Assembly: GCA_964016885.1 (NCBI GenBank)
Contig: OZ024740.1
Coordinates: 328,910,001-328,974,000, forward strand
DNA length: 64,000 bases
Reading direction: 5' to 3'
Origin: Eledone cirrhosa
Taxonomy: Eukaryota
A model generated the notes under the pieces. That model worked only from the letters and a program-made list of their open reading frames with translations. It had not been told where the DNA came from and did no database searches. Positions 8,158 through 63,494 of this stretch are shown here, in pieces. The translations under genes were made by a program, and so were the position numbers. The stretch's first letter is position 1, and the number at the start of each line of letters is the position of its first letter.

Positions 8158-8346
8158 AATAATTGTTTCTACTTTTGGCACAAGGCCAGCAATTACCCAG
8201 TACATTACTGGTACTTTATTTTATCGACCCCGTAAGAATGAAAGGCAAAGTTAACCTCGGCGGGATTTGAACTCAGAATGGAAAGGACCGTAACTCTATG
8301 CGTCAAAGCATGGCGTCCGACCCTCTACCGATACTGCCAATCCACT
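8158..8346 (-). mobile_element. tRNA-derived SINE, near full length
   Basis: Minus strand has A-box-like TGGCAGTATCGG and B-box GTTCAAATCC, followed by the conserved core gcctttcat.cttacggggtcgataaaat (resembles the Nin/Deu SINE domain). Confidence 0.85.
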
Positions 8347-9504: not shown

Positions 9505-9723
9505 TTTCGTTTCTGAATTTGTTTAGCAAGATTCTTTATCTGAAATCGTGTGTTGAAACCCAAATTGTTATATTTTAAGAGGGTCATGTTGCCAATAAGA
9601 AACACACGCACCAGTTGCTTTCACTTCACTTTATTATAATAAATTTATAAATTTAGGAATTCATAAATTTATAAATTTCTGGTTGGTTGGTTGGTTCCAC
9701 AACCAGTTAGTTGTTTATATATT

Positions 9724-9766
9724 GTCAAAGTTCTTTCGTCACACATTCTGTGACCTCATCAGTGAG
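9724..9766 (-). ncRNA. Minimal type I hammerhead ribozyme in PLE 3' region
   Basis: Minus strand: ctca CTGATGA g gtcaca gaatg tgtgac GAAA gaac TT tgac. Confidence 0.75.
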
Positions 9767-9967
9767 TGGGGATTCTTTTCTTCGTTTTTGTGCCTCTCCT
9801 TTGTTCTGTCCTACGCCATTTTGTTTCTGTGTGTGTGTTGTGCGCTCAGTCTGCGCATGCGCCACATACGGGTGTCTGTGTGTGTTTATATTTGTTTATT
9901 TATTTGTTTATTTACATGTTACCGGTTGGTTGTTTGTTCTATGTGTGTGCGTGTTTTCGTTTTGTCC

Positions 9968-10285
9968 TTAATTGTAAGTTGTGATGTTGCTGTTCCACTC
10001 ATATTTTCTATTTAATTTTGGTTGTAATTCTTTTATGTTTATTGCCTCTGTGATTTGTCTAAACATTGCGTCTTTTCTGTGTGTAGATTCTATTTTTATT
10101 TCTATGTTCTCTAATTTACCCTTATGTTCTATTTTAGCATGTTGGTAGAGTACAGATGATTCTTTACTATCTTGAAGGTCTCGCCAGTGTTCATTTATCC
10201 GTTCCCCTACACTACGGGCTGTCTCACCTATGTACACTATATTTTTGTCTCTACATTGTCCTTCAGTACATCTTATGCTATACAC
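9968..10285 (-). pseudogene. GIY-YIG endonuclease domain of PLE
   Basis: VYSIRC...IVYIGETARSVGERINEH...RQITEAINI..LNRKYEWN. Confidence 0.85.
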
Positions 10286-12757
10286 TACATTTCTAGTTTT
10301 ACAGTTAATATGGGGGCTTATTTTACAGGTTATGCATTTCTTATCTATACAGGGGGGGATCTTTACAGGGGGGATCTTTAGAGGGGCGGTCTTTGAAAAG
10401 GGTATGTCTTGCTAATAAGTGTTTTTACGGAGGTACCTGGTCTTTCTACTATCTTAATATTGAGTTTATATTTATCTAGGGCCCTTCTAAATTTGTAAGC
10501 TAATTCACCCCTAGGGGTTGTATCGATGAACATTACACTCTGGTATTTATTGCTATCATACCATGAGTTTATTCTATTAGCCTTATTCCTAGTTCTTTCT
10601 ATTCTATTCCAAAATTTGCTCCTATACAAGGGGCAGGTCCCATTTGTGTCATTATTTACCATTTTTTCCCATTTGGTTCTGGCTCCTCTATACACTCTTA
10701 TTTTATCTCTCTGATTGTAACCAGAGAACTGCATACGGTGGATGAAGTGTTGTATGTGTCTCTCTAGTTCTTCCGGGTTGCACATGCGGGACACGTTTCT
10801 CATCACCCGTACCAAATCCGCAATCAGTATGTTGATTTTGGTATGGTCCGAAACAGCCGAGTTTCGGTGGATCAGATGTTTGGAAGTCATGGGTTTGGCA
10901 TAATGGGAATGGAGGATTTGTTTTTTGTTATTAATGGTATCTAACCAGAGCTCTGTGTCTAGTACAGGTAATCGATGGTTAGGGTGTTTAGTTGGGTAGT
11001 CTATAGTAACTCTAATACTCTGGTGGATGGAGTTAGCTATTTGCTGGATGCTTTCCATTGTGTTTTTCTCTAGTTCCTGACTGTTCTCTAGTGGCGGTGT
11101 CTTAACTACGATGTTTATATCATCAACGTAGCGGGAGTACATTATCAGCGTTAAGGGGTCTTCTAATTGTTCTTTAAGTTTAAGTTTAAGTCTACTGTCC
11201 CCCATACCATGAATAAGTTAGCTATGTCGCCTGAAATGCTAACACCAATGGCTGCTCCTTCCTCCTGGGCATATGTTTTTCCATTAAATTTGAACATATG
11301 TTCCTTAAGGGTTAGTTTTATGCTGGCCCCTACCGCATGTGCAATCATTTTCTTCAGTTCATCGTGGTTTTCGGGTGTCCGTATGACTCTGGTCCACCCG
11401 TTCCATCTATCCGTGTCGGTTTTCTTGGCCATTGAGGTAATGGTAGGTGGTCTGCCTCGTCGCAGGTCGAACGACTTATCAGAGGGATTATAAAAACTAG
11501 AGATCCAGGCTGCTGATTTATGTGTACTAGTGCTATTGTTATTGTTAGTTGTGTTGTTTCTATTTCTATTTCCACTAACAGCCTCATGGTTGTTTCTATG
11601 TCTCTCATAATTATTCCTGTCTCTTTCCACTGGCTCATTGTTATTATCTACTCTATTTTGTGTGTCTGTGTGTTCGTCTTGGTTATTATCTTTGTCCATA
11701 GTCTCCCTTCTCCTTTTAATCCTATTACTTTCCCTTATTTCTGTGATTTCTGTGCTACTGTCATTATTTGCTTTCTGTGTCTGTGTGTTTGTTAAGATTG
11801 TGGTGGTGGTGAGAGACATTGAATGTGTGTGTGTTGTTGTTGTGGATGTGTGCTGTTGTTGATGTGTGTTGTTGTTGTTGTTGTCTCCGTGTGTGTTATT
11901 ATTGTTGTGTGTGTTGTTATTGTTATTGACATATACAACACACATCCCAACAATAACAGACACACAGACACAAACAACAATAACAACAACACACACACCA
12001 ACAATAATAACATACCCAGAAACAACAACAACACACACGCAGACACAAACAACAATAACAACACACAACAATAATAACACACACAGAGAAAACAACAACA
12101 CACACACATTCAATGCCTCTCACCACCACCACAATCTTAACAAACACACAGACACAGAAAACAAATAATGACAGTAGCCCAGCATTCACAGAAATAAGGG
12201 AAAGTAATAGGATTAAAAGGAGAAGGGAGACTATGGACAAAGATAATAACCAAGACGAACACACAGACACACAAAATAGAGTAGATAATAACAATGAGCC
12301 AGTGGAAAGAGACACGAATAATTATGAGAGACATAGAAACAATCATGAGGCTGTTGGTGGAAATAGAAATAGAAACAACACAACTAACAATAACAATAGC
12401 ACTAGTACACATAAAGCAGCAGCCTGGAACTCTACCTTTTATAATCCCTCCGATAAGTCGTTCGACCTGCGACGAGTCCACGCCACGACTTTACCATTTA
12501 ACAAACGCACGCAATTGCCGTCGCAGGTCGATGAACAAACAGAAGCACAATTTAGTATAGCTAGATCCGAACTTAGAAATATTATAGAACAGTATAGCAA
12601 GAAGCATAATAGGATGGAGGCCCAGCAACTGGAAGAAAAATCTGCAAATGGCTTGCGTAAGCTCATGCAGCGCTCGCGTAATGGAGAGATAGCATGCTTT
12701 CCAACAGACAAGTCTGGCAGAATGTCGGTTGACAGCCTGCCAAACTACATCTAGGCA

Positions 12758-14431
12758 ATGCAACCCCACATCACTAACACAAGAGAGGTAACACCACAGG
12801 AGCATGAGGATAGAGAAAAAGCCCTCAATGCCCATATGGTGATGTGGACGAATATAATGCAGCCCAACAAAAGGACTGCCAACAACTTCCAGGCCTGGAA
12901 CAATGACGTGCCGGCGTTGTATGGGCTTCGAAAAGACTATAAAACGGGCAATGACCCTGTCACGGGACCACCAACACGGCCAGCCTGTGGGGCTAACATT
13001 GCTAGTAACTACAGACTGTCCTACTTCCTCTCCCTGATCATACGCCCCATCATTGAAATGTCCCCAGATGTATGTGACAGCACGGAGGACCTCCTCAGCA
13101 GAATCGGCGAGAGTAACCGATCTAGGGACCTAACAAACTTCATAATAGGTAGTATGGATGTTGTGTCCCTGTATCCATCTATTGACGTGGATTTTGCTGT
13201 GGAGAAATGCGTAGGAAAGATCAGCGAGAGCAATGTTGAGTTCCGTGGGATTGATACCAGTGAGCTGGGACTCCTACTTAAACTTACCTATAGTAATAAT
13301 TACCTAGACACATATGACCTTAGCCACCTGTGCCCTACAAGACCAGCAAGTGGCAGACCACCTACCATTACCTCAATGGCCAAGAAAACCCACACGGATA
13401 GATGGAACGGGTGGACCAGAGTCATACGGACACCCAAAAACCACGATGAACTGAAGAAAATGATTGCACATGCGGTAGGGGCCAGCATAAAACTAACCCT
13501 TAAGGAACATATGTTCAAATTTAATGGAAAAACATATGCCCAAGAGGAAGGAACAGCCATTGGTGCTAGCATTGCAGGCGACATAGCTAACTTATTCAGG
13601 CTATGGTGGGACAGTAGACTTAAACTTAAACTTAAAGAACAATTAGAAGACCCCTTAACGCTGATAATGTACTCCCGCTACGTTGATGATATAAACATCG
13701 TAGTTAAGACACCGCCACTAGAGAACAGTCAGGAACTAGAGAAAAACACAATGGAAAGCATCCAGCAAATAGCAAACTCCATCCACCAGAGTATTAGAGT
13801 TACTATAGACTACCCAAGTAAACACCCTAACCATCGATTACCTGTACTAGACACAGAGCTCTGGTTAGATACCATTAATAACAAAAAACAAATCCTCTAT
13901 TCCCATTATGCCAAACCCATGACTTCCCAACATCTGATCCACCGAAACTCGGCTGTTTCGGACCATACCAAAATCAACATACTGATTGCGGATTTGGTAC
14001 GGGTGATGAGAAACGTGTCCCGCATGTGCAACCCGGAAGAACTAGAGAGACACATACAACACTTCATCCACCGTATGCAGTTCTCTGGTTACAATCAGAG
14101 AGATAAAATAAGAGTGTATAGAGGAGCCAGAACCAAATGGGAAAAAATGGTAAATAATGACACAAATGGGACCTGCCCCTTGTATAGGAGCAACATTTGG
14201 AATAGAATAGAGAGAAATAGGAATAAGGCTAATAGAATAAACTCATGGTATGATAGTAATAAATACCAGAGTGTAATGTTCATCGATACAACCCCTAGAG
14301 GTGAATTAGCTTACAAATTTAGAAGGGCCCTAGATAAACATAAACTCAATATTAAGATAGTAGAAAGACCAGGTACCTCCGTAAAAACACTTATTAGCAA
14401 GACATACCCTTTTCAAAGACCGCCCCTCTAA
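12758..14431 (+). CDS. PLE reverse transcriptase (interrupted ORF segment)
   Basis: Motifs PALYGLRKDYK, TRP, GSMDVVSLYPSI, QEEGTAIG, YSRYVDD, LPVLD, HYAKP. Confidence 0.9.
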   Translation: MQPHITNTREVTPQEHEDREKALNAHMVMWTNIMQPNKRTANNFQAWNNDVPALYGLRKDYKTGNDPVTGPPTRPACGANIASNYRLSYFLSLIIRPIIEMSPDVCDSTEDLLSRIGESNRSRDLTNFIIGSMDVVSLYPSIDVDFAVEKCVGKISESNVEFRGIDTSELGLLLKLTYSNNYLDTYDLSHLCPTRPASGRPPTITSMAKKTHTDRWNGWTRVIRTPKNHDELKKMIAHAVGASIKLTLKEHMFKFNGKTYAQEEGTAIGASIAGDIANLFRLWWDSRLKLKLKEQLEDPLTLIMYSRYVDDINIVVKTPPLENSQELEKNTMESIQQIANSIHQSIRVTIDYPSKHPNHRLPVLDTELWLDTINNKKQILYSHYAKPMTSQHLIHRNSAVSDHTKINILIADLVRVMRNVSRMCNPEELERHIQHFIHRMQFSGYNQRDKIRVYRGARTKWEKMVNNDTNGTCPLYRSNIWNRIERNRNKANRINSWYDSNKYQSVMFIDTTPRGELAYKFRRALDKHKLNIKIVERPGTSVKTLISKTYPFQRPPL

Positions 14432-14446
14432 AGATCCCCCCTGTAA

Positions 14447-14839
14447 AGACCCCCCTGTATAGATAAGAAATGTATAATCTGTAAAATAAGCCCCCATATT
14501 AACTGTAAAACTAGAAATGTAGTGTATAGCATAAGATGTACTGAAGGACAATGTAGAGACAAAAATATAGTGTACATAGGTGAGACAGCCCGTAGTGTAG
14601 GGGAACGGATAAATGAACACTGGCGAGACCTTCAAGATAGTAAAGAATCATCTGTACTCTACCAACATGCTAAAATAGAACATAAGGGTAAATTAGAGAA
14701 CATAGAAATAAAAATAGAATCTACACACAGAAAAGACGCAATGTTTAGACAAATCACAGAGGCAATAAACATAAAAGAATTACAACCAAAATTAAATAGA
14801 AAATATGAGTGGAACAGCAACATCACAACTTACAATTAA
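14447..14839 (+). CDS. GIY-YIG endonuclease with upstream Cys cluster, in frame with RT beyond two stops
   Basis: RPPCIDKKCIICKISPHINCKTRNVVYSIRC...YIGETARS. Confidence 0.8.
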   Translation, partial: RPPCIDKKCIICKISPHINCKTRNVVYSIRCTEGQCRDKNIVYIGETARSVGERINEHWRDLQDSKESSVLYQHAKIEHKGKLENIEIKIESTHRKDAMFRQITEAINIKELQPKLNRKYEWNSNITTYN

Positions 14840-15040
14840 GGACAAAAGGAAAACACGCACACACATAGAACAAACAACCAACCGGTAGCATGTAAATAAA
14901 CAAATAAATAAACAAATATAAACACACACAGACACCCGGATGTGGCGCATGCGCAGACTGAGCGCACAACACACACACATAAACAAAATGGCGTAGGACA
15001 GAACAAAGGAGAGGGACAAAAACAAAGAAAAGAATCCCCA

Positions 15041-15083
15041 GTCACTGTTGAGGTCACAGAATGTGTGACGAAAGAACTTTGAC
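15041..15083 (+). ncRNA. Minimal type I hammerhead, core mutated (A6U)
   Basis: gtca CTGTTGA g gtcaca gaatg tgtgac GAAA gaac TT tgac; mirror of 9724-9766. Confidence 0.65.
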
Positions 15084-15312
15084 AATATATAAACAACTAA
15101 CTGGTTGTGGAACCAACCAACCAACCAGAAATTTATAAATTCATAAATTCCTAAATTTATAAATTTATTATAATAAATTGAAGTGAAAGCAACTGGTGCG
15201 TGTGTTTCTTATTGGCAACATGACCCTCCCAAAGTATAACAATATGTATATATATATATATATATATATACAATATTAAATAAATGGAAACTATATTTAT
15301 AAAACCATATTT

Positions 15313-17851: not shown

Positions 17852-17892
17852 TTGTGTAATTTGTTTACATTTTCTATTTAGTTCAGAGTTAT

Positions 17893-17923
<31 letters not shown>

Positions 17924-20170: not shown

Positions 20171-20199
20171 CTGTTCGATCCATAATTAAATCCATAGCA

Positions 20200-23567: not shown

Positions 23568-23856
23568 CATATATGTACGTATATATATGTGTGTATATAT
23601 ATATATATATATAATGACTGGAATAATTATGCTACTCAGATTCCCCATTTGAACTGCGTATAGCAACATAGCAACACATATGTACAAAATACACCTCGTT
23701 TAATTATTATGCCACCATTTCATTAAGAAATCATTATTATCAAGAAGAAAGCATGTTGCTAGTATCCTCGGGCAGTAAAAAATATTTTAAGCGTGTTCAC
23801 CCGGCTACCATATAACGTCTAGGTGGGCTTGAAATGTTCTCTCCACTTACATTAAA

Positions 23857-24210
23857 TAATTGTTTCTACTTTTGGCACAAGGCCAGCAATCATTCCAGTG
23901 CATTGCTGATGTTTTTTTTAAAGACCTCGTAAGGATAAAAGGCAAAATTAACCTTTGAACTCAGAACGTAAAGGGCCATAACTTCCATTGAATAATGATT
24001 TCTACTATAGGGATAAGGCCAGTAATTTAGGGGGAGGGGAAAGTCGGTTAAATCGACACCAGTACGTTACTGGTTCTTTATTTTATCGACCACGTAAGGA
24101 TGAAAGGCAAAGTTAACCTCGGTGGGATTGAATTCAGACCGTAAACGACCGTAACTTCCATTAAATAATTGTTTCTACTTCCATTAAATAATTGTTTCTA
24201 CTTTTTGGCA
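23857..24210 (-). mobile_element. Two to three tandem partial SINE copies
   Basis: Repeated ttgtttctact...gtaaggatgaaaggcaaagttaacct. Confidence 0.75.
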
Positions 24211-30426: not shown

Positions 30427-30860
30427 ATATACATATATACGAAATACCGATCGGTCATGTTTGAACATGTATTGTAACCACAGCAAAAGTCTTTACCAAC
30501 GCACCCACACAGAGTTTTCGGTGAAAGAGCAGCGATCGCCAATGCATGTAAGTCTCCCATGTTCTTATTCCTATTTTTTGCAAGGAAAAGTGATATTAAA
30601 TACATTTTGTCATTAGTGACGTCCCATGCAATTTCAGAACGAAAATTGCTGCTAGAAATACACGAAACCATGATGATCGTTGCTCTGAAAATTCAGCTAA
30701 TCCACGGATTTAGCCTTCATATCATAAAAGTCTGAATTTAGCATGAAACCACCAGTTAACATTAACAGAAATCATATAATGTTTCAATACAAAAACGTTC
30801 ATATATATATATATATATATATAATATAAGATCAAAAGATGGTTAAAGGAGTTCCATATA

Positions 30861-30927
30861 TTTTATTATGCGCATTTCAAAAACAAACATCATCATGCAA
30901 TAATATTTGTGTTTTCATCAGATAAAA
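30861..30927 (-). ncRNA. Type I hammerhead ribozyme (mirror copy)
   Basis: Reverse complement of 31050-31116. Confidence 0.85.
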
Positions 30928-31049
30928 CAGGAGAACATGATATGAAGGCTAAAAAACACTTGTGGATAGTGCAGTTTTAAATCAACATATGTTGATTTAA
31001 AACTGCACTATCCACAAGTGTTTTTTAGCCTTCATATCATGTTCTCCTG

Positions 31050-31116
31050 TTTTATCTGATGAAAACACAAATATTATTGCATGATGATGTTTGTTTTTGA
31101 AATGCGCATAATAAAA
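31050..31116 (+). ncRNA. Type I hammerhead ribozyme
   Basis: ttttat CTGATGA aaa-c-acaaatattatt..gatgatgtttgt-t-ttt GAAA tgcgca TA ataaaa. Confidence 0.85.
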
Positions 31117-31294
31117 TATATGGAACTCCTTTAACCATCTTTTGATCTTATATTATGCATACTCCAGTCCTACAAACTGTAGAGTGCTTCTTATCCGATA
31201 TCTGCATTGCTTTATTGTCCTACAATAAAACTCACCTCCTACATATATATATATATATATATATTCACAAAATATGCACAAAATATACAATTAA

Positions 31295-34570: not shown

Positions 34571-35256
34571 GGCTGCTATTCTGAAAACATATAGGAAATA
34601 TAATAAAATAATTAAAATTTTAAGGTATTGTTAAGTTACATATGTGTAGGTATACCAAGGATTAATTTCTGGTACGTTATAATACCAAAGCTCAGAATAA
34701 CTACAATTTTACTTCAGGTATGAGATCATGTCTTTCGTTATATATCTTAAGAGAGATCCATTATACTATAAGTAAGTCTAAGAATTCGTTTTGTGGAAAC
34801 GTCACACCTTTTAGTCTTATACTTGTATTTACATATGCTAACATATACTTTATATTACCATGCTAATATGATATATATTAACATTCTAGACAATGACGCA
34901 CAGTACCCGAATCTTATAAGCACCTATATATCCAAAGAAATCAGAGGAAAGAAAATCCACAATTGATTTATGGTGTATAATGGACATTTTTAATTATCGT
35001 GCAGAATACATTGTATCAATTACTTGCAAAACTCGTTTAATACATTCTAGAGTAAAAGAATCACCTCACTGATAAAATGACTTTACCGTAAAATCTCACA
35101 TAATTTATTTTTCCTCTACTCAAAGTGTTAAACATTCTCAAGTCTATCGACTATATCGTTTCAGTTAGTGCAACATTTTGTTAAAACTATTCAACTGGTA
35201 ACTTACAAATAAGCTATGAGTGATATGTAGATTCTGCTTCTTGTACTATGTTAATA

Positions 35257-35448
35257 TAATTGTTTCTACTTTTGGCACAAGGCCAGCAATTATTCCAGTG
35301 TATTACTGTTACTTTATTTTATCGACCCCGTAAGGATGAAAGGCAAAGTTAACCTCAGTGGGATCTGAACTCAGATCATAAAGGGGCATAACTCTATGCT
35401 GCAAAGCATGGTGTCCGACGCTCTACTGATACTGCCAATCCACCGCCC
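35257..35448 (-). mobile_element. tRNA-derived SINE, full length
   Basis: Same family as 8158-8346. Confidence 0.85.
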
Positions 35449-35692
35449 TACGACCCCAAAATGAAGCCACTCGGAGGTAGCTGGAGTTGGTAAAACTAGC
35501 ACCAAAATCCTTTTGATATCGCATCATATCATGTTGACATGGAAAGAATATATTGGTTAAAGTTAAGTTAGGGGGATCACAGCTAGAAGCATTTACCATA
35601 ATATCCTGTCAGTCAGGGCTGACTTAGTCCTAAATAACAAGGTCATTGATATGGAAATACATAAAATATTCCCAAAAGGCCATGCCACTTGC

Positions 35693-38905: not shown

Positions 38906-39581
38906 GTTGGCAACTAAACTGGCAACCCCACCAAGTTTTCTTGGTGAGGAGGGTGACTTTGGACATCCTGCAGGACTAAAAACAAAACCTGTCAAAGGGA
39001 AAAGGAGCTCTTAAGAGTCAATGGCCATCCAAAATCACCGAGAGAGATGACCTCTTAGCCTTTGTCAAGGCAGAATTCTAGGAGAAGGAAAACTCTGATA
39101 TAACACCTGCAACCCTGATGGTATCCAATGATGTTGACTTGTTCTTCTTTTTGGTAAATATCATCTTGGTTAAGAGAGTGGGACTGGCTTTGTGCAGTGC
39201 CTTTGCTCACTATAAAAGCTTCACGGCACAGGCATTGCTTTATATCTGGAGATCTCTCTGCACTTGTCGTCACATGGTACCATGGGCCCAGCACTATATG
39301 TCAATAATTGTCACAAGTGTAGTGTTTGTACCAGAGCTTTCAAGTCGCTGGCTGGACTAAAAATCACACTCGTTCAGCGCAACGGTAGGGGTTCTCCTAC
39401 ATGGATATAAAGTAGTGGCCGTACTCGAAAACGAGTTGGCAGCCTCCATATATATATGTATATATAGTGTATTTTGCAATACACTGTATGCTTAATTAAA
39501 AGCATTTCGAAGACCTTATGCTATTGTTTTAGAGTAGTGACAGACTCACTTACTTTAATTTCAGCAAACAGGGGGATATAA

Positions 39582-39626
39582 AGCTGACAAGGCCTTGTTT
39601 CGCATTTATTGATGCTTATCAAAGCC
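39582..39626 (-). ncRNA. Variant type I hammerhead (U3-A8 core)
   Basis: Minus strand: ggct TTGATAA gcat caataa atgc GAAA caaggccttg TC agct. Confidence 0.85.
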
Positions 39627-39911
39627 AACTCCTCCTCCTGCCTGCTGAAATCATGGATGTTTGGTTCTTATAGAATTCTAGTAAAGAATCGGGAACTGAT
39701 TATACAGAGCGGTTGCCTGTCAAGCAGAAATTGAAAATTAGAATTGGTGCTCTGAAATAGCTATATATATATGAATGTATATATAGTGTATATGTTCTAA
39801 TTTTCAATTTCTGCTTGACCGGCAACCGCTCTGTATAATCAGTTCCTTATTATTTACTAGAATTCTATAAGAACCAAACACCCATGATTTCAGCAGGCAG
39901 GAGGAGTAGTT

Positions 39912-39956
39912 GGCGTTGATAAGCATCAATGAATGCGAAACAAGGCCTTGTCAGCT
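39912..39956 (+). ncRNA. Variant type I hammerhead (U3-A8 core)
   Basis: ggcg TTGATAA gcat caatga atgc GAAA caaggccttg TC agct; distal stem atttcagcaggcagg / cctgcttgctgaaat. Confidence 0.8.
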
Positions 39957-40146
39957 TTATCTCCCCCTGCTTGCTGAAATTAAAGTAAGTGAGTCTGTCA
40001 CTACTCTAAAACAATAGCATAAGGTCTTCGAAATGCTTTTATTAAGCATACAGTGTATTGCAAAATACACTATATATACATTCATATATATATAGCTATA
40101 TCACAGCACCAATTCTAATTTTATATATATATATACATATACATAC

Positions 40147-40350: not shown

Positions 40351-41278
40351 CTGTGCAGTGTCAAGAGTTCCCGTAGACTAGATAATGGAAAAATGGTGTT
40401 ATATTACGTACAGAGCTAAACTATATTATTATAAATAGGTTCTCAATACAGCTGCCTGCTACCAATGGTTTCAAAACCTACTCAAGCATATGTCTTAGAG
40501 ACCGTGTCACTGGTAGGGTTTCTTATCTTTAAGGCAATACCAGGGTCACCGACGTTATTTACACGAGATCTCGTCAAGTGCTAGGGAGATAATTATAATT
40601 TTATGTTTTTCGTATTCAGATGGAGTAAATCCCGTATATCAACGTTTATCTAAATTATAACAAAGTAAGGTGTGCGGGACTACGTCCAGAATATATATTT
40701 TACTATCCCGTTTGTAAAATATGTTGGATTACTTTAAATAAATAATGAATGAATATTACATAATCTATCTACTAAATTTCGTTATACTTGATTAAATATA
40801 AATAATTTTGTTGCTTATTTTAAGATTAACTTTTTAAAAATGTTCAAATGTCCGGTTAGCGATCGCTTAAATAAACATTCATATATTTCCGTCACTAATT
40901 TTCTCCTAATGCAGTTTATATATAATATCGTCTTTTTTTACTGTATCATGGATTACGTTACTGATTACATAAGACAGTGTAACGCAGCCTTCGTTCAATT
41001 TCTGTGGATATTGTCAATTACGATTTTATTTGATGTATCATATATACATGCACATTTACTTGCGTATAATATCAATATGCACACTACACATGCTAGCAGA
41101 AAACCACACGAAGGGTGGTTTTTCTGCTTGTATTTTTAATGTCATTACAATTGTAATTGTATTTGTTAAAATGTCTGTATTGTGGGTATGTCTGTTTGTG
41201 TTTCCCTATGTATAATCAATTATATGGAGTACTGTAGTACATATGTTTTATTATTATTATTTTCATCATTTTTTTGAA

Positions 41279-41470
41279 GGGTGGTGGATTGGCAGTATCG
41301 GTAGAGGGTCGGTTGCCATGCTTTGGCGTATAGAGTTACAGTCCTTGTCATCCTGATTTTAAATCCCGCTGAGGTTAACTTTACCTTTCATCCTTACGGA
41401 TCGATAAAATAAAGTAACAGTCATGCACGGGGATAATTGCTGGCGTTGTACGAAAATGTAGAAACAATTA
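41279..41470 (+). mobile_element. tRNA-derived SINE, full length
   Basis: ggtggattggcagtatcggtagagggtcgg...cctttcatccttacgga tcgataaaat...gtagaaacaatt. Confidence 0.85.
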
Positions 41471-41907
41471 TTTTTATCATTAAGGCGCAGTTTTTTTTTT
41501 TTTTACTATTATTAAGGTGTAGTATATTGTTAAATTCAGTACTTAAGGTGTGTGTATGTGTACTTGTGTGTGTGTATTTATGTTTATATTATTAATGTAG
41601 ATGGAATGTGGTGTGTTGCCTTGACGGTGTATGTGTTTTGCCAATACACCACTTCATTATATATACATTTTCTTACACCCTAGTATTAATATTAGCCTCT
41701 CTTTTTCTTCTTCCCTTATAAATTATCCTAATAATTATTTAAATTTACCTAGCATCTAAATATAAGGATCGTGTTTCAGCCTTACGTTTCAACCTCATTT
41801 ACATATTCATCCTAAAGATTTGAAATTTTTCTTTCACTATCCAAACTGAACCTGAACCGATAAGGTCTGGTTTCTTGGGTAGGTCACCATTCATAAAACA
41901 AATTTTG

Positions 41908-43782: not shown

Positions 43783-44612
43783 TTCGATATGGTTGTCCAA
43801 GCTTTTATGACTATATTTTCATTACCAATACTCATGGATAGTTGTTTTGGGCCTACTACCTTTTAAGACTACTACACTTCTTTTGTCCGTTTACTCACGA
43901 AATATTTTCCTCTTATTGTGAAAGGAAAATATACATTAATAATGCATTAACACACAGAGACATACACCTCCTCTTTATATATATATATAACGAAGGAAAT
44001 GTGGTAAGGGACCAGATGGACCATAACGCACCAAAGTACTCAATACTTAGGGTAGTAGAGTGGGTAATAGGAACAAGTAGGAACCCGACCTACGAACCCT
44101 ATGCTCTCACCCTTCGAGAGTGACCTTTTCCAACTGGTCAAGAGCATTAAATTCAAACCCAGACACAACAGATTCCTACAAAATCTACGTAGCAATTTAA
44201 CAGAGTATAAAAACACCAATGACATCATGGTACACTCGGATAAACTGGTAACCTCTACTTCGTCAACCCCGACAGATACCACACACTGATCAGGAGCAGC
44301 CTAAACTCCACCTATAAAAAGGCTAACCACTCAAGCATCGAGGACATAAATCGAGATGGACAACAAGTTACCCCCAGCCTCGGGGTCGCCGAGCGCACGG
44401 AACCCCTAGACCCACGGACTCCCTAATTCACACTGAAGGACCCCACATCCGATTTCGACCGTAAACCATCTATAAGGCTTATAAACCCAACGAAGTCCGA
44501 CGTAGGGAGAATCAGTAAAAAGATCCTAGACCGCGTTATACCAAAAGTTAAGCAAAACGCCAGACTTAGCCTATGGGTCATCACCCAGGAAGTAATCTCA
44601 TGGTTCAGCAAT

Positions 44613-45284
44613 ATGGAGGAGAAACGAGACACAAAATTCATCCAGTTTGACATAGAAAGTTACTATGCTTCAATTACCTTACCGCTCCCCACGGCCGCCT
44701 TGGACTTTGTCGAGACACTCGCGCCCATCACCGACCAGGAAAGAAATATCATCCTCCACGCCAGGAAGACAGTCCTACATTTCGACGACTCCAAATGGAT
44801 AAAGAGAGCTCCCGACTCCCCCTTTGACGTCAGTATGGGCGCGACGGATTCGGCTGAGGTTACAGATCTTATAGGATTATTCCTACTATTTAAACTCACC
44901 GATATGTTTCATGCATTCGGCGGTGGATTGTACCGTGATGATGGGCTACTTACTCTCAAAGGGTACAACCCCAGTAGTACAGACCGAGTCCGTAAACAAT
45001 TAATCAGCTTCTTCCGCGACTGGGGATTTAAAATAACCCTACACACATCCATAACGCGAGTAAACTTCCTGGACGTTACCGTTAACATCGATAACGATCT
45101 GTACTACCCATACAGGAAACCAAACGGCAACCTGCACTACATCACCAATAACCTGGTTAAAAACATCTCGCTCCGCACATCTCGTTTGTCCGCTAATGAG
45201 CAGATATTCGAGGAACATGCGCCTTATTACAACCAGGCCCTCAAGCTTCCGGGAGGAAATATCCTATCGTCCAGCTTCCATTAG
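44613..45284 (+). pseudogene. PLE RT core fragment
   Basis: YRDD catalytic motif; flanked by frameshifts. Confidence 0.85.
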
Positions 45285-47174
45285 CGGAACCAGCAGGCGA
45301 CACCGCCGCTCACGCAACGTAACGTGGTTCAATCCTCCCCACAATGCCGAGGTGACAACACCTATCGGGAAAATCTTCTTTAGGCTCATCGAAAAACACT
45401 TCCCACTACAACACCGCTACCACAACATAATCAACAAAAATACCATCAAACTCTCCTACAGCACCACACCTAACTTTGCACAAAACATCGTCTCCTCTAA
45501 CAACAAAAAACTCAACCCATATGGAAGAAATAACCTAGATAGCAGTGGAGAGCCGACCAGGAAGTGTAACTGTCCTGATGGATCCCTTTGCCCCCTCGAC
45601 AACAGATGCAGAGATCGTAATGTGATATTCCAGTGCAAGGTGAGGACGGACACCTCCAACAAAGCTTATATAGGACGCTTGTGACTTCAAGACCCGGCTA
45701 TACCAACACAGACATACTTTCCAAAACCCGGCCCGGCGTCACGCCACTACACTTTCGGGCCACACCAGGGACCTCAAAGATAACAATATAACATAAAATC
45801 TCGCTTGGAGCTTACTGTCCAGAGCAAACTCTTACACGGGAGGACGCCGTCCGTGTAACTTATACTCGGAGGAAACATTACAAATGCTGTTTTCGACAGA
45901 CCAACTCCTAAACAAGAAAGACTAACAGGTAACTGCATGCAAACACAGATTGCGTAGGACTTACCTTGCCCTCAAACCCCATAATGACCCGGGGGGGGGG
46001 GTGTAGACAAGGTCTGAAACACCCCACTTGCCGATTTTGTAAGGGGTAACCCCTGCTTGCAAAGGTAGACGTAAGTTTTTTTATATATTCTTTTTATATA
46101 TTTTTTATCGTTTCCTCTATATTTCCTTCTTCCCCCATCCCTTCCTAGTCCTTCCACCCCAGATCTCCTTCTTTGTCGTCATCCTTTTCACCTTCTCGCC
46201 CACCCCGATGCATCCCTGCGGCCCTCTGTAGCCTCAGTACCCCCACCCCCTTATTTTATGATAGAATTGGCCGATTCCACTTTTTATAGCAGATGTGCTA
46301 GACCCCAGTTACTTGCTTTCTTCTCTGGTTGCTGCCCCATTTCCATGATTTAGGATTTCTTAGTGGTATTTCTGCTTTAGTTTCTCGAATATCCGTATTT
46401 ATTTTTTGGGATTCTGAATTAATTTTTCGTATTAGATTTTCATATATATTGTACAAGTATTTATGTAGATTGTATTAGAATTTATGTATTGTAGCAGTAT
46501 TTATATATATTGTATTAGTTTTTTTTATATATATTGTATGAGTATTTCTGTAGATTGTATTAGAATTTATGTATTGTAGCAGTACTTATATATATTGTAT
46601 TAGTATTCATGTTTCTGGATTCTGAATTAATATTTCGTATTATTTTTTTTAGTATGTTGGTCCGCAACTTGTTGATCTGACCTTGTAAAATAGCTTTGGC
46701 CGATTACTACTAACTATTGTAGTGGTGGTAGACCCCCTGTAATGATGGCCTCATAAAATTCTTTCACTACAATCTCGTATTTAGTATTCCTTCCCACCTA
46801 TTAAACTTTTCTATAGCTTAGCAGTACCAGTGAGAGATTTCATGATTGTGGAAGGGGACTAGTAACCAGAAATTGTTTTTTTTATATTTTTAATATTTTT
46901 TATATATTTACTCCATTTAGATTTACTTATTGTTTCAACTCCCCCTCCCCTTCTCTAGTATACTTTTTTCGACCTTCTATACACCATCCTTAGAATCTGC
47001 TGTAGTTTTCACTTTCAACGCTTGACTGGATTTCCTCCACTCCCTATCCCTCTTTCTTCTACTGGCAAGTTCAGCTACCCCTACCTTCCACAAAATGCCA
47101 CGATAGAATCATGTGTCTTAACAACAAACTTTTGACCAATCCTTGTGACAATCATTTTTACCATATACGGAATT

Positions 47175-51166: not shown

Positions 51167-51712
51167 TGTGTGTGCGTGTGAGTTCAACACTTTTTCGTAT
51201 TAGTGTATGATGTGTTTGTGAAAATAATATAATTTTTTTTACTTTTTTTAAATAATAGACGTTGTGACAGAGATAATCGATAAATACTTGTATATACATA
51301 GTGTGTCAATTTGAAACAACAGCATACTGTAGTTATTACAAGGCATAACTATCATTATGATGGATTCGAACACCATGTGTTGTCAGAAAGAAAAATATAA
51401 CACTTGCATTCAGTATGTGATTAAACTCTGTCAGAGGCTATATCAATATATTATTTTTTCATATACGCATTGTCAGTCGTACAAATGAGCAGAAATGCAT
51501 ATCGAAGACATGTGTGCATTGACCCAAACTTAGATGTAATGAATATTGTAGGTTGGAGCATATTTCATGACGCATGTTCAGAAATATTTAGTGACGTGAT
51601 AAAAATAAGAGAATATAAGTCATTGACAAAATAATATTGTTATATTTTCTTGTAAATGGAGTAGAAATATTCAGACGTACTTTCATTTTATATTATTAGT
51701 TTCCTTACCAGA

Positions 51713-51930
51713 AGGGTGGTTGGCAGAATCGACAGGGCATCGGACAACATGCTTTGTGGCATTGAATTACGGCCCTTTACGTTCTAAGTTCAAAATTCCG
51801 CCGAGATTAGCTTTGCCTTTCATCCTTACGAGGTCGATAAAATAAAGTACCAATAACGTACTGGAGCCGATTTAATGGACTTTCTCTTTCCCTCAAAATT
51901 GTTGGCCTTGTGCCTAAATCATTAACTATT
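51713..51930 (+). mobile_element. tRNA-derived SINE
   Basis: tggcagaatcg, gttcaaaattcc, gcctttcatccttacgaggtcgataaaat. Confidence 0.8.
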
Positions 51931-52474
51931 ATTAGCTTCCTTACATACGCACTGTTTCTCGTTTGCAAGACATTTAATCAGTAGTAAAATCCAAACGTCG
52001 AAACCTCGTCAGTTTCCATGAACGTTCTTCCGACAATAGAAAGTAGCTAGAAGCAAATTTAAGTATAAGATGTGTGAAATTATGTCTACTTGTAAGGAAT
52101 CAATACGTTGCTGTTCTACCAATTTCATTATTTATTAAGTGACGAACAAAAATTCTTGAATTGATTGTCCATGTGACTAGCTCAGATAGCCGAGTTGTTT
52201 CAATTAGGGTATAGCAACTAGAGTAAAAGATTTTCTATTGTATCAATATAAGGCCTTAGATTTTTTGTATTGATGTTCTTTCGTCAAAGGTCAGCCCTGA
52301 CCGAGAAGACATATGATTAATATAATTGCGGTCGAGATTATACTGTCATTCTTCTAGATATAATTTAACGCGGACTACACTACCCGATGCCGTGATTAGT
52401 GTGTGGCTTGAGGGAGATTAATGATACATGTTTTCTTGGCCTCTTTTCCTTTTTACACACACGCACACTCATAT

Positions 52475-53629: not shown

Positions 53630-55249
53630 GTTATTCGGTTAGCTTTAGCAGACGGATAGATGTAGAGAAATATAGAGTAGAACAAAGTGTGGCAACAAAG
53701 CTACTATTTACTTTCTGACAGACTGCAGTAAATGTGCGCTATTTGGCCTTAAGCATATGTGCACGAGTTTTCGGCGGACTTTCGATTTACGCTTTTTAGT
53801 GCTGCGAAAGGCCGGTCTCAGTATACAATATCGGAAACCAATATCGGAAAACAATGTTTGCATTCTAAACAGGGTTACTGAAAGTTATGAGTGACGATGA
53901 CCTCTGATGGAGAATATGGCAACACGTATGGTATCGGAAACCTTTGACGTAAAGCTCAGTGCCGAGACAAGCCAATGGGCTTGCAGCCCGGCACTGGACC
54001 CACGGTCCCATTAATATGCTCCCAGTCTGATGCGGACAGCATATCTAGGTAGACAAGAATTACGGAGAGGCTAAGAACAGGATGGACAGTCTCATTAAAA
54101 GATGCATTGAGAAAAATCTGTCCCTAAATCTTGGAGATAAAATGGTTATCGTCAAAATCGCCTCCGTGATACACTTCCACCAGACCATCATACAAGGTCC
54201 TAAAAAGGAACCGGCCACACTGGAGCCGATGTCTATCGAGTTCTTAGAAGAACAATGTTCTGCTTGTTACGAAATCTTTTTTTTTGCATCACCCACTTTG
54301 AGGTGATTTCGGGATGCCCTGATGATGTGCAGACACACGCTACAGATGATATGGCTAATGTACCAGTAGAATTATGTTGACCTATGCAACAAAGGTGAAG
54401 AATAACCACTGGGGCCTTTTTTGCGACAACGTCTTTTCAGAAATCGCCTGCTTAACCAAGGTATAGTCCTGACTCAAGGGTAGACCAAAGTTGAGCCCCT
54501 GATATCTGAAGGCTCTCTCTGGTGCGATCGGCAGATGAAAAACAACAGTTGCTTTCTAAAGAGGGTTAGTGAAAGTTATGAGTGACGGTGGCCTGGGAGC
54601 GATTAGGAGCATCGACGAGGAGAGCCTCAGTAAACTCCAATAGAGTATTTTCAAGTCGGAGACTATGGACAATATCCACAATTCCTTGGTGGGGGTGAGT
54701 CTACCTGCTAGTGACAAGTTCCACAGCTACGGATTACAAACAATCGATCCTGAACGAGATGCGCACTGAATGATGAAACCATCTGCGTTGAAGACTTATA
54801 AGCTCATTTCGAAACGATGCTCTGAAATGTTGGAGAGATACAAGTATAGTGAAATTCGTACTAGCAGGGAAGGATGGTAATATTCTCTATGGTGTATAAG
54901 CCTAAAGCCTTTGCGGAGAGGGATCTTCCTTTGCACCCAACCTTATATCGACCAGTTGAAGTATTACATGAAAGTGAAGGTGATACTGAAAAGGGAAGTG
55001 CTGGCGTCTAGTATGTTTCATGAATGCTGGATGGGAGACGTAAGTCTAACGTGTTAGAATAGGCTTACTCTAAATATGTTTTACATATACAGGAAGAAAT
55101 ACATCGGAAGAGGCTCTTTCTTTGCCGTTGGTGCGATATAGTAATTCAGGATATTGTAACGGTTTTCCTGGGAATACCCCTAGGTGGTCTTCCCCTCTTA
55201 AACGAAGCACATATCAAGTATTTAAGCACATGGGGTGAGGCGGGCTCAG

Positions 55250-55437
55250 GCACCATGTTTTGCACCATAGAGTTTAGGCCCTTTACATCAATCTGAGTTC
55301 AAATCCCGCCGAAGTTAGCTTTGCATTTCATCCTTACGAGGTCGATAAAATAAAGTATCAGTAACGCACTGGGGTAGATTTAATTGACCCCCACTTCTTC
55401 AAATTGCTGGCCTTGTGCTTAAATCGGAAATCATTAT
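55250..55437 (+). mobile_element. tRNA-derived SINE
   Basis: gagttcaaatcccgccgaagttagctttgcatttcatccttacgaggtcgataaaat. Confidence 0.8.
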
Positions 55438-55975
55438 TTTGCAATATTTTGCCATAATAACTTCACAATAAAAGTCATGTTCTGTAGACATATGGAATTA
55501 CTCCAGAGAAACAATTGCTTCTATAAAATGCTTCATCAACAGATATTGTTTGGAAATTGCCAATATCAATTATATGTCCACAGACAAACTGACAGTAAAT
55601 CTACAAAAACGTTTGTGTATCGTTCAAGTTGTAATTACTTCTAATTGAATGGCGAAGATATTTCAATCAAGAAATATATTTATATTATCTAAGGCAGTGT
55701 AAATTTTGAGCTTTTTAGTTTGATGTTACATGGCAATTATATTTACTATATATTGATATACTAATTATGTAAACAATATTGCAAATTTTATAAAACAAAT
55801 TGATGTTAGGCTTTTATGCCAACATTCAATGCAGATGATAACATTTTATTGGAGAACTGCATTGTCATATGCTCAGAAAAATAATGTTCCTAAGAGTGCA
55901 ACAGAAATTCTAATCAATCTTATATACATACATACATATATATATATGGATTTTAGTCTTCGAATTTATTATTAT

Positions 55976-56214: not shown

Positions 56215-57207
56215 AAAATGATACATGACATACCCTGACATAGTAGATGGTTAAGATTTAATCAAGGTAGTGATTAACTTATGAGAAAACTCAATATTTA
56301 TACCTTAATATTGAGAACATGAGAAAACGTAATACAATCAATAGAGAGAGAGTGTGAGTAATATATTTTAAGAAATACATGGCATCAATGTAACAGTTAT
56401 AGAATTTTTAATATTTAAAAAACTACTAGAGAAATATGCGGGAGAGGAAAGCATAGAGGACGACGTGTTATAACTTATTTAGTATTTAGCTTGAGAAGAC
56501 AAATGAAAGATAAATAAAGAGAGAGAGAGACAAAGGGGAGTAATTTATGCTCAAGTTTCTACATACACATATTCATATAGAGTTGGCGGTTAATTTTCAA
56601 AATATTTAATTTATGTTATTTCAAGGTAAAGAATCAAATTTTAGGTTTTAAAAGTTGATGGGTATTTGTATTAATATTATAATATAATTATGTTAAATTT
56701 CTAAAATTCAAATTTTATGAAGACAAATTTAAAGGATTTAGGAAACCCGCGAAAGAAAGAAAATATACATATAATGTTCGATATCCCCACAAAGGTAATC
56801 TTTACCAAAATTACTTATAATATTGACAACAGTTTCTATAATATAATTTATGAGATATTTACTATTATAACTATTAAATAATTTATTGTTAACTAGTTAG
56901 AGTGCCTAAAGTATAAATAGGTCTTATAATTAAACTTAAAGAAGTCAGAGTTTTCAGCTATATATATGTGTGTATTGATCATAAAATATCAATTTACGAC
57001 GAAATCTCCTTATATAAACACACACACGCACATATATATATATATATTAGAATTGGAGCTCTGAAATAGCAATATATATATGGATGTATATATAATGTAT
57101 TTTGCAATACACTTTATGCTTAATTAAAAGCATTTTGAAGACCGTAAGCTATTGTTTTAAAGTAGTGACAAATTCACTCACTTTGATCTCAGCAAACAGG
57201 GGAGATA

Positions 57208-57251
57208 AGCCGACAAGACTTGTTTCGCTTTGGTTGAAGCTTATCAAGGCC
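57208..57251 (-). ncRNA. Variant type I hammerhead (U3-A8 core)
   Basis: Minus strand: ggcc TTGATAA gctt caacca aagc GAAA caagtcttg TC ggct. Confidence 0.85.
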
Positions 57252-57431
57252 AACTACCCCACCTGTTTGCTGAGATCATTGATGTTATATTCTTATAGAA
57301 ATCTAGCATTTTGACAACCGCTCTGCATAATCAGCATTTTGACAACCGCTCTGCATAATCAGCTCCTGATTATTTACTAGATTTCTATAAGAATATAACA
57401 TCAATGAACTCAGAAAACAGGTGGGGTAGTT

Positions 57432-57475
57432 GGCCTTGATAAGCTTCAACCAAAGCGAAACAAGTCTTGTCGTCT
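57432..57475 (+). ncRNA. Variant type I hammerhead (U3-A8 core)
   Basis: ggcc TTGATAA gctt caacca aagc GAAA caagtcttg TC gtct. Confidence 0.8.
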
Positions 57476-57588
57476 TATCTCCCCTGTTTGCTGAGATCAA
57501 AGTGAGTAAATTTGTCACTACTTTAAAGCAATAGCTTACGGTCTTCAAAATGCTTTTAATTAAGCATAAAGTGTATTGCAAAATACAT

Positions 57589-57638
<50 letters not shown>

Positions 57639-58147
57639 TATATGTGTGTGCGTGTGTCTCTATGTGTGTGTGTGTTTGAGTATGTATGTGTGAGCATGTG
57701 TGTGTGTCGGCTTAACTATGTTATTATGTCTCCAATTATATTATGTTGAATATAGTTATAGTAATTGGGAAAGTATATTTCTTTCTTTTATTTTATATAG
57801 TAATTCTTGAAAAGTTTCGTCGATTATATGTTTCCGATCTGTCTATGACTTATTCACTACAGAAATGACGGTGACAATGTAAAGGAATTGTGTAACCTGA
57901 TGCAAACCACTATATTAAGGGAAATATGTTCTTGATATTTAATTTTAGTTATGTACAGCTGCAAAAATATATTATATACGTGCATACATACATAATATTC
58001 ACCCACCATCCATACATGCATGCATACATACATACACTATTTTTGCATGTCAGAACTCCATATATATTGTTGATGTCTAAATTCCCATGAAAACGCAATG
58101 CGTCTATTTTAGAAACCGGCTCGCTCTCTATGGGTAAAAATCTATAA

Positions 58148-58337
58148 AATAATTGTTTCTAACTTTGGCACAAGGCCAGCAATTATCCAGTGCATTACTG
58201 GTACTTATTTTATCGATCCCGTAAGGATGAAAGGTAAAGTTAACCTCAGCGGGATTTGAACTCAGACCATAAAGGGCAGTAACACTTTGCTGCAAAGCAT
58301 GGGGTCCGACCCTCTATCCATACTGCCACTCCACCGC
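58148..58337 (-). mobile_element. tRNA-derived SINE inserted into a LINE 3' tail
   Basis: Family motifs; interrupts sequence homologous to 59159-59270. Confidence 0.85.
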
Positions 58338-60889: not shown

Positions 60890-62479
60890 CACACACACAC
60901 ACACACATACACCCACACACCCACACCCACACACCCACACACACGCACACACAAACATTATACATATGATATGGCTGTGCCCTCCATGCCGTCGAAAAGT
61001 ACCACTAACTTGGTAAATTTTGGATGTAACAGTGTTACTTTAAGATTGTTAGTCTCTTACATGTCATTGGGCGGACCTAAAAGCAAAACTGCGTATGTAG
61101 ATTTTTACGCAGAAGTATATTCTGATATATAGTACTCTGCCTTTTCAAGCCACAAATAGTTTTGCGAAATTTCTCGCATTCATTGCATGGTTCTCAATGA
61201 TTTAGACGTACATTTGCATAGATAAATATATATATATATATACATACAAATATTAATAAATTTAAATATGAATACATATATATATACATGCATACATCTA
61301 TACATATATCACACATACATATATATTTAGTACACGTGTATTTGTGTATGTGTATGTGCGTGAGTGTAAGGTGTATGAACATATATGCTTATATAAATAT
61401 AAGGATGATGGTTCCTAATGTAAGTATCCACTCACCGATGTTTGTCCAGGGTTTGTTGTTTCTGGGTATTGCATTCTTAATTATTCAATAATGCGGGAAG
61501 TAATATTGGCGAAGCTATAGCCCATTCTCTTTTAACCATGCCATCTTATGTGTGTTGCTTGCTGAGGCGTAGTTATTGCAAAGAAGCCACATGAAATGCA
61601 TGCACCGTTTGTTACAACTGATCTTTAAGCAAGGTTCAATTCTGCATTCATCCGTATTGAAATCTAAAACATTCCTTCATCAATCTGTTGTTCCTTGTTT
61701 CGCACACTGAGTCATGCGCCCACACATGCACATCGAACACATGGTTTAAGAGAAGCACACATTCATGGAAGCTTACATATCACATATTAACTTTGGCAAA
61801 ATATGATATTGACGTACAAATATTTAAGATAGAAAAACGCTATTTTTATTATGATATGCTTATACATTAGATTACAGTTTATAAGCACACATAAATAATA
61901 CCTACATACATAAATACATACGCACACACTCATACACACACATATATAACGCACACACACACACATATCTCATTAGAGCTGCTCTGCTAGAAAGTGATCC
62001 AGGTGGCGGATAGCGATACCGCTACCAGATATAATCTTTAGTTGCGATATACGCGGTTCTTGCCACGTGAAAATATATCAAATTACTAGGGGAGAGGGAG
62101 AGGGAGCAATGGGTGGCACTGTGAGCTCCCAAGAAAACTCTCATAACCCAGTGAGGTAGCTAATATTCGGGAGTCTGAGAAAAGTACGAAATTGGTGACT
62201 GGTGCGAATGAGACCACCAACACACCGCAATATGTGTGTAAACTGTAAAGGCATTCCTACTGCATAGTTTTCACAGGGGATAGAAAGGGACGCATTAGGT
62301 AGAGGAACCTGTTCGAAACACATATTGCAGTCTCTATCCAACGCTGTAAGAAATGACGATGGCCTAAGACCTGTCATGGGAGACATGGGATGGAAGCACA
62401 AAGGTTACGTATACTGAGAACTCAGAGATGGTCCAGAAAGGCAAACTCTTCGACAATTGGTAATTGTTGCTAGTGTCTT

Positions 62480-63080
62480 TAATCCGGCATTGATCTCTGG
62501 TATCTTTATTCCGACATTGATCCCTAGTGTTTATAACTCGGTACTGATTATTATTATTTTTAAACCGGCATTCATCGTTATTTTTTAATCTGGCACAGAC
62601 CATTATTTTTTTAAATCCGGCACTGACCATTTCTATTTTTAATCCGCCACTGACCTTTATTATTTTAAACCATCCACTGATAATTATTTTTAAATCGGGA
62701 GTTAACATTACTATTTTTAATCCGGCGCAATCATTTCTGCTTTTAATCCGCCACTTATTATTTTTAACCCGGCACTTATCTTTATTATGTTTAATCCGGC
62801 ACTAATCATTAGTGTTTTTAATCCAACATTCAAACTTATTATTTTTAACCCGGCACTATTCCGGAACTGACAAATATTATTTTTAATCCGGCACTTATCC
62901 TTATTATTTTTAATTGATTATTAGTGTGTTTAATCCGAAACTTAAATTTACTATTTTAATCCGACATTAATTACTAGTGCTTTTTAACCAGGCACTGAAA
63001 CTTATTATTTTAAATCCGGCACTAATCCATAGTGTTTTTAATCCGGTACCAACCCTTATTATTTTTAACCCGGCACTAAT
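62480..63080. repeat. Degenerate ~25-bp minisatellite (ttatttttaatccggcactgac-like)
   Basis: More than 20 recurrences of (t)aatccggcac / aacccggcac. Confidence 0.85.
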
Positions 63081-63494
63081 TTTGGGGTAATATTATCCAC
63101 CAGCAATAGGAAGTAAGTTATTTAATTTCAATAAATATCTGTTATATATTGATTGATAAGAGTTTATAATGTCTAAGTGGCCTTGCAATGGTAGTTATAC
63201 GGTGGGTTTTTTCTGAAAAGGTGTGTTATGAGTTTAGGAGTGGTTTATATAACACTCCGAACCGGGACAAAATGTGATCGATGATGATTAGTACAAGATG
63301 TCGGGAATCTTTGTTATATAGGATATTTTAAAATTCAATCAATACTTTCATGAATGAAATAAGCAAGAAATCTTTATGACTATGAAACTTTTGAAGGCTG
63401 GAAGGAAAGTGTCAGTCGTATTGTAGGGTATTAACGTTGGATTTGTTTTTTGATAAAGTTGAATTTGGAGGGTATTTGATTGGCTTTCATGTCC

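Follow-up and report, generated by a model that had tools for sequence, protein, structure and literature searches.

A U3-A8 hammerhead motif carried by a likely non-LTR retrozyme family in the genome of Eledone cirrhosa

Hammerhead motifs in the window

The window, a stretch of 64,000 nucleotides from contig OZ024740.1 of Eledone cirrhosa, contains two inverted pairs of repeat copies, at 39 and 57 kb, with a hammerhead motif in each arm, as well as an inverted pair of Penelope-like element (PLE) sequences. The features concerned are as follows.

9561..15246, inverted pair: Penelope-like element; RT ORF at 12755-14431, GIY-YIG at 14447-14839
39456..39791, minus strand: subfamily B copy of the putative retrozyme, slightly longer than one monomer (BLAST with the monomer)
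39558-39651, minus strand: intact subfamily B hammerhead; core 39622-39616, C17 at 39586
39778..40122, plus strand: inverted partner of the subfamily B copy; 36-bp tail (40087-40122) ahead of (TA)n
39916-39922, plus strand: core of the 39-kb partner hammerhead; C17 at 39952, stem I mismatch of G39915 opposite A39953
57046..57306, minus strand: subfamily A copy of the putative retrozyme; monomer positions 89-316 (57306-57079) plus a 33-bp Penelope-type tail (57078-57046), then (TA)n
57186..57276, minus strand: intact type I hammerhead with distal stem, subfamily A; stem I 57253-57248 / 57211-57206, core UUGAUAA 57247-57241, GAAA from 57226, predicted cleavage after C17 at 57212
57342..57599, plus strand: inverted partner of the subfamily A copy; monomer positions 54-311, (TA)n at the end, 98% to the monomer
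57409..57498, plus strand: 57-kb partner hammerhead; core 57436-57442, C17 at 57471, stem I mismatch of C57434 opposite T57473

As an earlier, sequence-only reading of this DNA had claimed, TTGATAA stands in place of CTGANGA in all four copies, and each core is followed downstream by a 4-bp stem II, then GAAA, stem III and GUC. The positions which that reading gave for the four copies do fall on the motifs, but they mark the outer ends of stem I and not the cores. The compensatory differences between the loci that it described in stem II and the distal stem are present, as is the palindromic stem III at the 39-kb locus, where the palindrome is perfect; at 57 kb, stem III is a palindrome with one additional central U. 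Its stem I pairs are true for both minus-strand copies, but each plus-strand copy carries one mismatch (GGCG/AGCT at 39 kb and GGCC/GTCT at 57 kb). The 57-kb plus-strand copy has an additional mismatch in the distal stem, and its hammerhead (57409..57498) is likely to be impaired by the mismatch in stem I.

A strict descriptor identified two intact copies in the window and none in each of 200 dinucleotide-matched simulated windows, and the fold z-scores of the window hammerheads ranged from -3.6 to -6.2. The best match in an Rfam search was HH9 (RF02275), which at 24.6 bits fell below the cut-off of 52, so that the motif is not a member of HH9. Loop 2 (CAA..A) and the stem I bulge (GU) are conserved, and their letters match those of the HH9 consensus in sequence. 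Rfam matches to microRNAs were rejected as microsatellite or hairpin noise. Identity among the four copies was 96-98% within an inverted pair and 83-85% between the loci; they therefore represent two lineages, not four samples, and because the 3-8 pair is invariant among them, no 3-8 covariation can be obtained from these copies. The covariation support that had been claimed for the core is thus missing from the window itself, but is strong across copies genome-wide.

Several other features accompany these copies. At the inversion junction of the 57-kb arms (57307-57341), a stretch of ~29 bp is duplicated. Further hammerhead-like motifs, with canonical cores, lie at 28698(+), 56207(-), 15369(-), 9190(+) and 31056(+)/30921(-); most have an ATATAT-type palindromic stem III, and they likely belong to other PLE or retrozyme families. 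Positions 30821-31156 are a 336-bp palindrome without a mismatch (100%), each arm of which contains a hammerhead-like motif; it is either a recent inverted insertion or a fold-back in the assembly. A degenerate 27-bp tandem repeat array is present at 62449-63105, and a dispersed repeat of ~190 bp, possibly a SINE, has at least eight copies (1939-2049, 8157-8345, 23851-24179, 35251-35449, 41276-41482, 51711-51933, 55242-55438 and 58139-58337).

The carrier repeat and its insertion marks

The carrier of these hammerheads is a non-coding repeat of ~316-320 bp, present in thousands of copies in the 3.0-Gb host genome. The subfamily A minus-strand copy matched the genomic 316-bp monomer with 100% and 97% identity (BLAST). 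For the 57-kb stretch there were 1,168 first-look candidates and, among the best 40 scored, at least 26 places were 100% identical over 167 bases, several of them 316 bases apart; for the 39-kb stretch there were 2,202 candidates, the nearest other copies among the matches listed being 96-98% alike. A conserved 3' motif of the unit had 5,903 exact matches in the genome (control, 0). At the fetched loci, units form 5'-truncated, head-to-tail arrays of up to ~17, often with an inverted copy on the 5' side. Each unit carries one type I hammerhead and has a GC content of 34-35%, and no ORF of more than 101 codons, counted from stop to stop, was found in the three arrays checked. Head-to-tail units of 150-450 bp, each with a type I hammerhead, low GC and no ORF, are the marks of non-LTR retrozymes, and the repeat is likely to be one, that is, a self-cutting mobile RNA.

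The copies also carry the insertion marks of PLEs. Their architecture, in the passages of PMC8557442 that describe it, comprises 5' truncation, an inverted 5' copy, an optional 30-40-bp tail and a microsatellite target, the tail being a consequence of RT starting at two internal sites (PMC11167929). In the repeat, 5' truncation, an inverted 5' copy, a tail of 30-44 bp and (TA)n targets were all found. Among 66 subfamily-A strand runs, 43 stop at monomer position 311-316 (the TA tract), a figure that includes some runs extending into a tail left unchained, and 19 stop at +33 to +44; a dinucleotide tract directly follows 44 of the 66, most ends being in (TA)n. The 5' ends of these runs are scattered and show no pile-up at the predicted cleavage site (3/66 within 3 nt) in a set of loci that is not a random sample. 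A DNA foldback or MITE reading of the inverted pairs was rejected on account of variable inversion breakpoints and unequal arms.

As a test for rolling-circle copying, changes private to an array were sorted by the units that carry them: 78 were in one unit, four in some units and four in all. Core damage was found to be common to several units of single arrays, for example GAAA changed to GAAT (L092:1749-3370) and G3 in two units (L096:1474-3081). Such arrays suggest that an uncleaved template was copied or that units were duplicated locally, so that cutting may not be required for copying.

Stem covariation and selection on the fold

Genome-wide covariation, which the sequence-only reading had proposed as a check, was assessed in an alignment of 42 rows, which took in the four copies of the window and, in id order, a maximum of four from each subfamily. 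Of all cells, 92.8% were paired, 19 of the 26 pairs changed on both sides and the covariation score was 0.439. The observed values were reached by 0 of 500 shuffles, and slid controls paired 25-41%, in a test that relatedness inflates; the outcome was as the proposal had anticipated. In a tree-aware count, 38 of the 46 changes on branches leading to five or more leaves kept pairing (14 of them Watson-Crick to Watson-Crick), compared with 80/217 changes on terminal branches (Fisher p=1.8e-8); this count omits four pairs, namely pairs 5-6 of stem I and the two pairs of the distal stem closest to the bulge, and uses a tree to which the stem columns themselves belonged. Eight internal changes break pairing, several of which resemble a mis-registered insertion. 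Lineages that amplified have retained the fold, whereas inserted copies decay. Stems I, II and III all covary, and a Watson-Crick 3-8 pair, GAAA and an NUH site, as in type I hammerheads, are present. The identification as a type I hammerhead with a U3-A8 core, its fold under selection, is thus well supported by these comparisons.

Distribution and origin of the U3-A8 pair

In the frame of subfamilies A and B, a genome-wide pattern returned 1,609 matches, of which 1,597 had U3-A8, 12 were mismatched or wobble and none had C3-G8. One genome-wide frame yielded 4,391 U3-A8 matches (control 3) versus 1,339 with C3-G8 (control 0), and the first 100 of 3,313 matches to a wider frame comprised 60 U-A, 33 C-G and 7 other pairs by hand count. 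When stem II was fixed and positions 3 and 8 were left free, a hand count among the 100 matches listed of 126 gave 71 C3-G8, 24 U3-A8 and 5 other. Sister subfamilies that share an identical stem II and are ~90% alike differ at both positions. Covariation at 3-8 among sister subfamilies was first seen at loci L004 and L040. In the 42 aligned rows, the 3-8 pair was UA in 27, CG in 15 and unpaired in 0. About three quarters of the family escape descriptors that require CUGANGA literally, much as had been claimed of standard searches, but U3-A8 is not the sole reason for such failures: an Rfam search had 0 hits in 4 loci, and a canonical C3-G8 sister was likewise without a hammerhead hit at E<=1.

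For tree building, positions 3, 7 and 8 were masked. Of the 263 copies extracted, 225 were sufficiently complete and were clustered at 97% into 130 rows; as mismatched copies were fetched deliberately, the rows are not frequencies. In the 130-row tree, a short branch (support 97/89) had all C3-G8 rows on the same side. After 11 rows of a further subfamily were added, parsimony placed one change from C-G to U-A above 102 of the 141 rows. On this larger tree there was no clade of at least five rows with an unpaired 3-8, and C occupied position 17 in 136/141 rows. In a tree of 35 near-full monomers, for which family E, divergent and on a long branch, served as outgroup, U3-A8 formed one clade (95/97) and E joined the C3-G8 rows. 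A single U3-A8 clade with the outgroup among the C3-G8 rows makes it likely that the swap happened once, from C3-G8 to U3-A8. U3-A8 was inherited by six subfamilies (C2, H, F, G, B and A), the youngest included. Subfamilies 68-90% alike retain the core and GUC while their stems turn over, an invariance that is partly by construction because extraction required U4-G5-A6, A9 and GAAAC.

Two U3-A8 matches, G000:C1:52141238(-) and 52141600(+), have a different stem II and flank and possibly represent an unsampled subfamily or a separate origin. Family E (L040:2068-2760) is a distant retrozyme, a ~310-bp tandem with 59-68% identity to the others, whose core has C3-G8 and whose stem III is a short palindrome.

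A Neptune-like Penelope element as candidate helper

The linker of the element at 9561-15246 reads Cx4CxxC, fitting the CX2-5CxxC of Neptune-type PLEs, which favour microsatellites according to the passages of PMC8557442 on this group; from this linker motif we infer that the element is Neptune-like. The GIY-YIG domain at 14447 was the only domain named by Pfam in seven window proteins. The 3' UTR of this PLE carries a minimal hammerhead with a long stem II and a bulged G at 15045(+) and 9762(-), of which the former has lost A6; relatives at other loci are canonical. Other Penelope-like RT/GIY-YIG fragments are located at 16766-17935(-), 19786-21269 and 44427-45684, some as inverted pairs.

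Sequence of the Neptune-like clade is contained in 39 of the 195 distinct places inspected, and five of the 195 have direct retrozyme-PLE junctions, three head-to-head (L013/L259, L105/L260 and L214/L262) and two in the same direction (L079 and L166/L261). In the head-to-head joins, a truncated PLE meets a truncated retrozyme without a spacer; L013/L259 is 94% to the window element, and both of its outer ends are in (TA)n. No such join was listed at 12 places with other PLE proteins, a weaker test that relied on protein matches, and the 3' end of the window's Neptune-like PLE shares no sequence with the monomer beyond TA. The joins may reflect template switching by one RT, with nested insertion as the alternative; PLEs do insert beside PLEs. 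A Neptune-like element is likely, as a candidate, to be the helper of the retrozyme. If so, the chimeric insertions would directly record the copying of retrozyme RNA by a Neptune-like RT whose element is unrelated to it in sequence, and would identify the helper enzyme of an animal retrozyme.

Folding and a proposed mechanism

Folding was computed with a model that omits tertiary contacts and Mg2+. The active fold of a single unit lay a median of 5.7 (A) and 6.6 (B) kcal/mol above the minimum-energy rod, which in both subfamilies pairs the core with stem III, and that of a circular monomer lay 6.2 kcal/mol above the rod. The stem III strands are self-complementary in 10/10 subfamilies. For all 16 tandem pairs, the double-hammerhead fold was 7-18 kcal/mol below two single folds, and in 10 of them it came within 3.5 of the minimum. 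As the double fold beats single folds and the monomer adopts a rod, cleavage of multimers as double hammerheads would be favoured, with the monomer quiet. On balance, we consider it probable that a U3-A8 hammerhead occurs once per unit of a PLE-copied non-LTR retrozyme whose multimers are predicted to be cut mainly as double hammerheads.

In the proposed mechanism, an array would be transcribed by read-through, and the self-complementary stem III strands of neighbouring units would pair, so that both cores fold and cut after GUC. Unit-length RNA would be released and may be circularised, a lone unit remaining mostly an inactive rod. Copying by a Neptune-like RT would begin at an internal site, either the TA tract or a point 33-44 nt past it; the enzyme would prime at a nicked (TA)n site and copy at least one unit, giving rise to truncated, inverted and tailed insertions. 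U3-A8 would be a tolerated Watson-Crick swap that arose once, probably via two transitions, and remained functional in the six subfamilies that followed.

A more tentative proposal, possible although doubtful in our view, is that the lineage with the swapped pair overtook its C3-G8 sisters (3.3 to 1, the youngest copies among them) because the altered pair tunes cleavage to the benefit of spread, with the Neptune-like RT as helper; the genome would then hold a complete natural experiment. U3 itself was rejected as the cause of the monomer being locked in the rod, because the C3-G8 subfamilies I and J are equally unfavourable (6-10 kcal/mol) and a computed swap at 3-8 moves the energy gap in both directions.

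The same element could also have an active ribozyme of which each hammerhead cuts efficiently alone, the palindromic stem III being incidental or a helper only. Stem III could form 4 bp in a monomer, with a 3-4-nt loop, which counts against the need for a dimer, and in subfamilies C1/C1b no more than 1 kcal/mol separates the single fold from the minimum, the gap being ~2-3.5 in C2, F, G and H. The conserved letters of loop 2 and the stem I bulge agree with HH9, and for most invertebrate retrozymes the sections of PMC7229834 on their activity describe efficient cleavage of the monomer. For this reason, and because the model ignores tertiary contacts and Mg2+, monomer activity may exist. However, the single fold is ~6 kcal/mol unfavourable in the window subfamilies A and B, and a fifth stem III pair that is possible only in the dimer covaries (AU 20, GC 11 and CG 4 in the 42 rows), making efficient cutting by lone hammerheads unlikely.

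It is improbable, in our judgement, that the U3-A8 core is weak or dead, a product of drift (C>T and G>A) in a genome rich in AT, with the fold kept only for RT binding or RNA stability. Such an origin would fit the nature of the two changes, both AT-ward transitions in a single event, and the multiplication of damaged-core copies within arrays. Cleavage is also dispensable for PLE insertion in vitro, where hammerhead mutants had no effect (PMC11167929), and most tested frog retrozymes were inactive, 8/9 dimers being without cleavage in the experiments described in bioRxiv 10.64898/2026.07.22.740005. Yet positions 3 and 8, which do not pair as part of the secondary structure, could vary without constraint in a dead core, whereas clades of five or more rows with 3-8 unpaired are absent; the core and GUC persist despite stem turnover (again partly by construction); and such swaps are said in part of PMC3088659 to be active in vitro.

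That the copies are truncated pLTRs of an unseen autonomous Penelope-like element, not a non-autonomous family, would agree with their PLE-type insertion marks (as in the passages of PMC8557442 cited above), with the relationship of frog retrozymes to pLTRs noted in sections of bioRxiv 10.64898/2026.07.22.740005 and with an inspection that covered only 195 places, but is highly improbable given that what sits upstream of a unit is the previous unit, in arrays of up to ~17 without an ORF, that 0/8 extended loci had an ORF ending in a retrozyme unit, that a search for an autonomous parent among same-strand pairs 1.6-3.2 kb apart and the eight extended loci yielded arrays or separate insertions, and that the window PLE has a different, minimal hammerhead.

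Comparison with known systems

The predicted double-hammerhead retrozyme resembles the animal non-LTR retrozymes described by Cervera & de la Pena 2020 (PMC7229834, main text) in its ~300-bp, low-GC tandem units with one type I hammerhead and no ORF, and the dimer-dependent cleavage that the same text describes for axolotl non-LTR retrozymes is like that predicted here. It differs from the retrozymes presented there in its U3-A8 core and its longer self-complementary stem III (4-5 bp), and its circular RNA is a putative one; the terms 'U3-A8' and 'covariation' have 0 occurrences in that main text. Rfam HH9 has the same topology and loop 2 letters as the retrozyme hammerhead, at the sub-threshold score given above.

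The core variant itself has precedents, and the novelty implied by the sequence-only reading was overstated. Natural covariation from C3-G8 to U3-A8 was reported in 2011 by Perreault et al. (PMC3088659), who, in the part concerned, cite Przybilski & Hammann 2007 for activity of the swap in vitro. The examples that this part of their paper presents are scattered, whereas the family described here has thousands of copies and before-and-after sisters in one genome. Cervera & de la Pena 2014 (PMC4209133) also report the same swap in minimal hammerheads belonging to the Cercyon PLEs of Schistosoma, with ~1,300 hits and a dedicated descriptor. As described in the relevant sections of that paper, Cercyon hammerheads likewise occur as opposite-strand pairs 100-700 bp apart, with a palindromic stem III and a dimer model, but have a 7-8-bp helix II, a bulge after position 9 and a minimal helix III. 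In contrast, the retrozyme described here has a 4-bp helix II, no bulge, a 4-5-bp helix III and a non-coding tandem unit, and given these differences in architecture the U3-A8 swap is likely independent.

Mobilisation of retrozymes by PLE machinery has been proposed by Li, Clavereau & Pollet (bioRxiv 10.64898/2026.07.22.740005) for elements of similar unit lengths. The evidence in the sections of that preprint bearing on this point consists of co-occurrence and pLTR homology, whereas here there are direct junctions and a PLE 3' end that is non-homologous to the unit. A literature search found no report of a U3-A8 retrozyme family, and supplements, including those of PMC7229834 and PMC4209133, may list some. 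As both the core variant and the element class are known, what is added here is mainly ~4,400 overlooked hammerhead copies. Beyond these, sisters that are ~90% alike and differ at positions 3 and 8 offer a clean natural test of the effect of the swap on cleavage, and a possible enzyme for the mobilisation of animal retrozymes is indicated by the places where the element is joined directly to a single Penelope clade.
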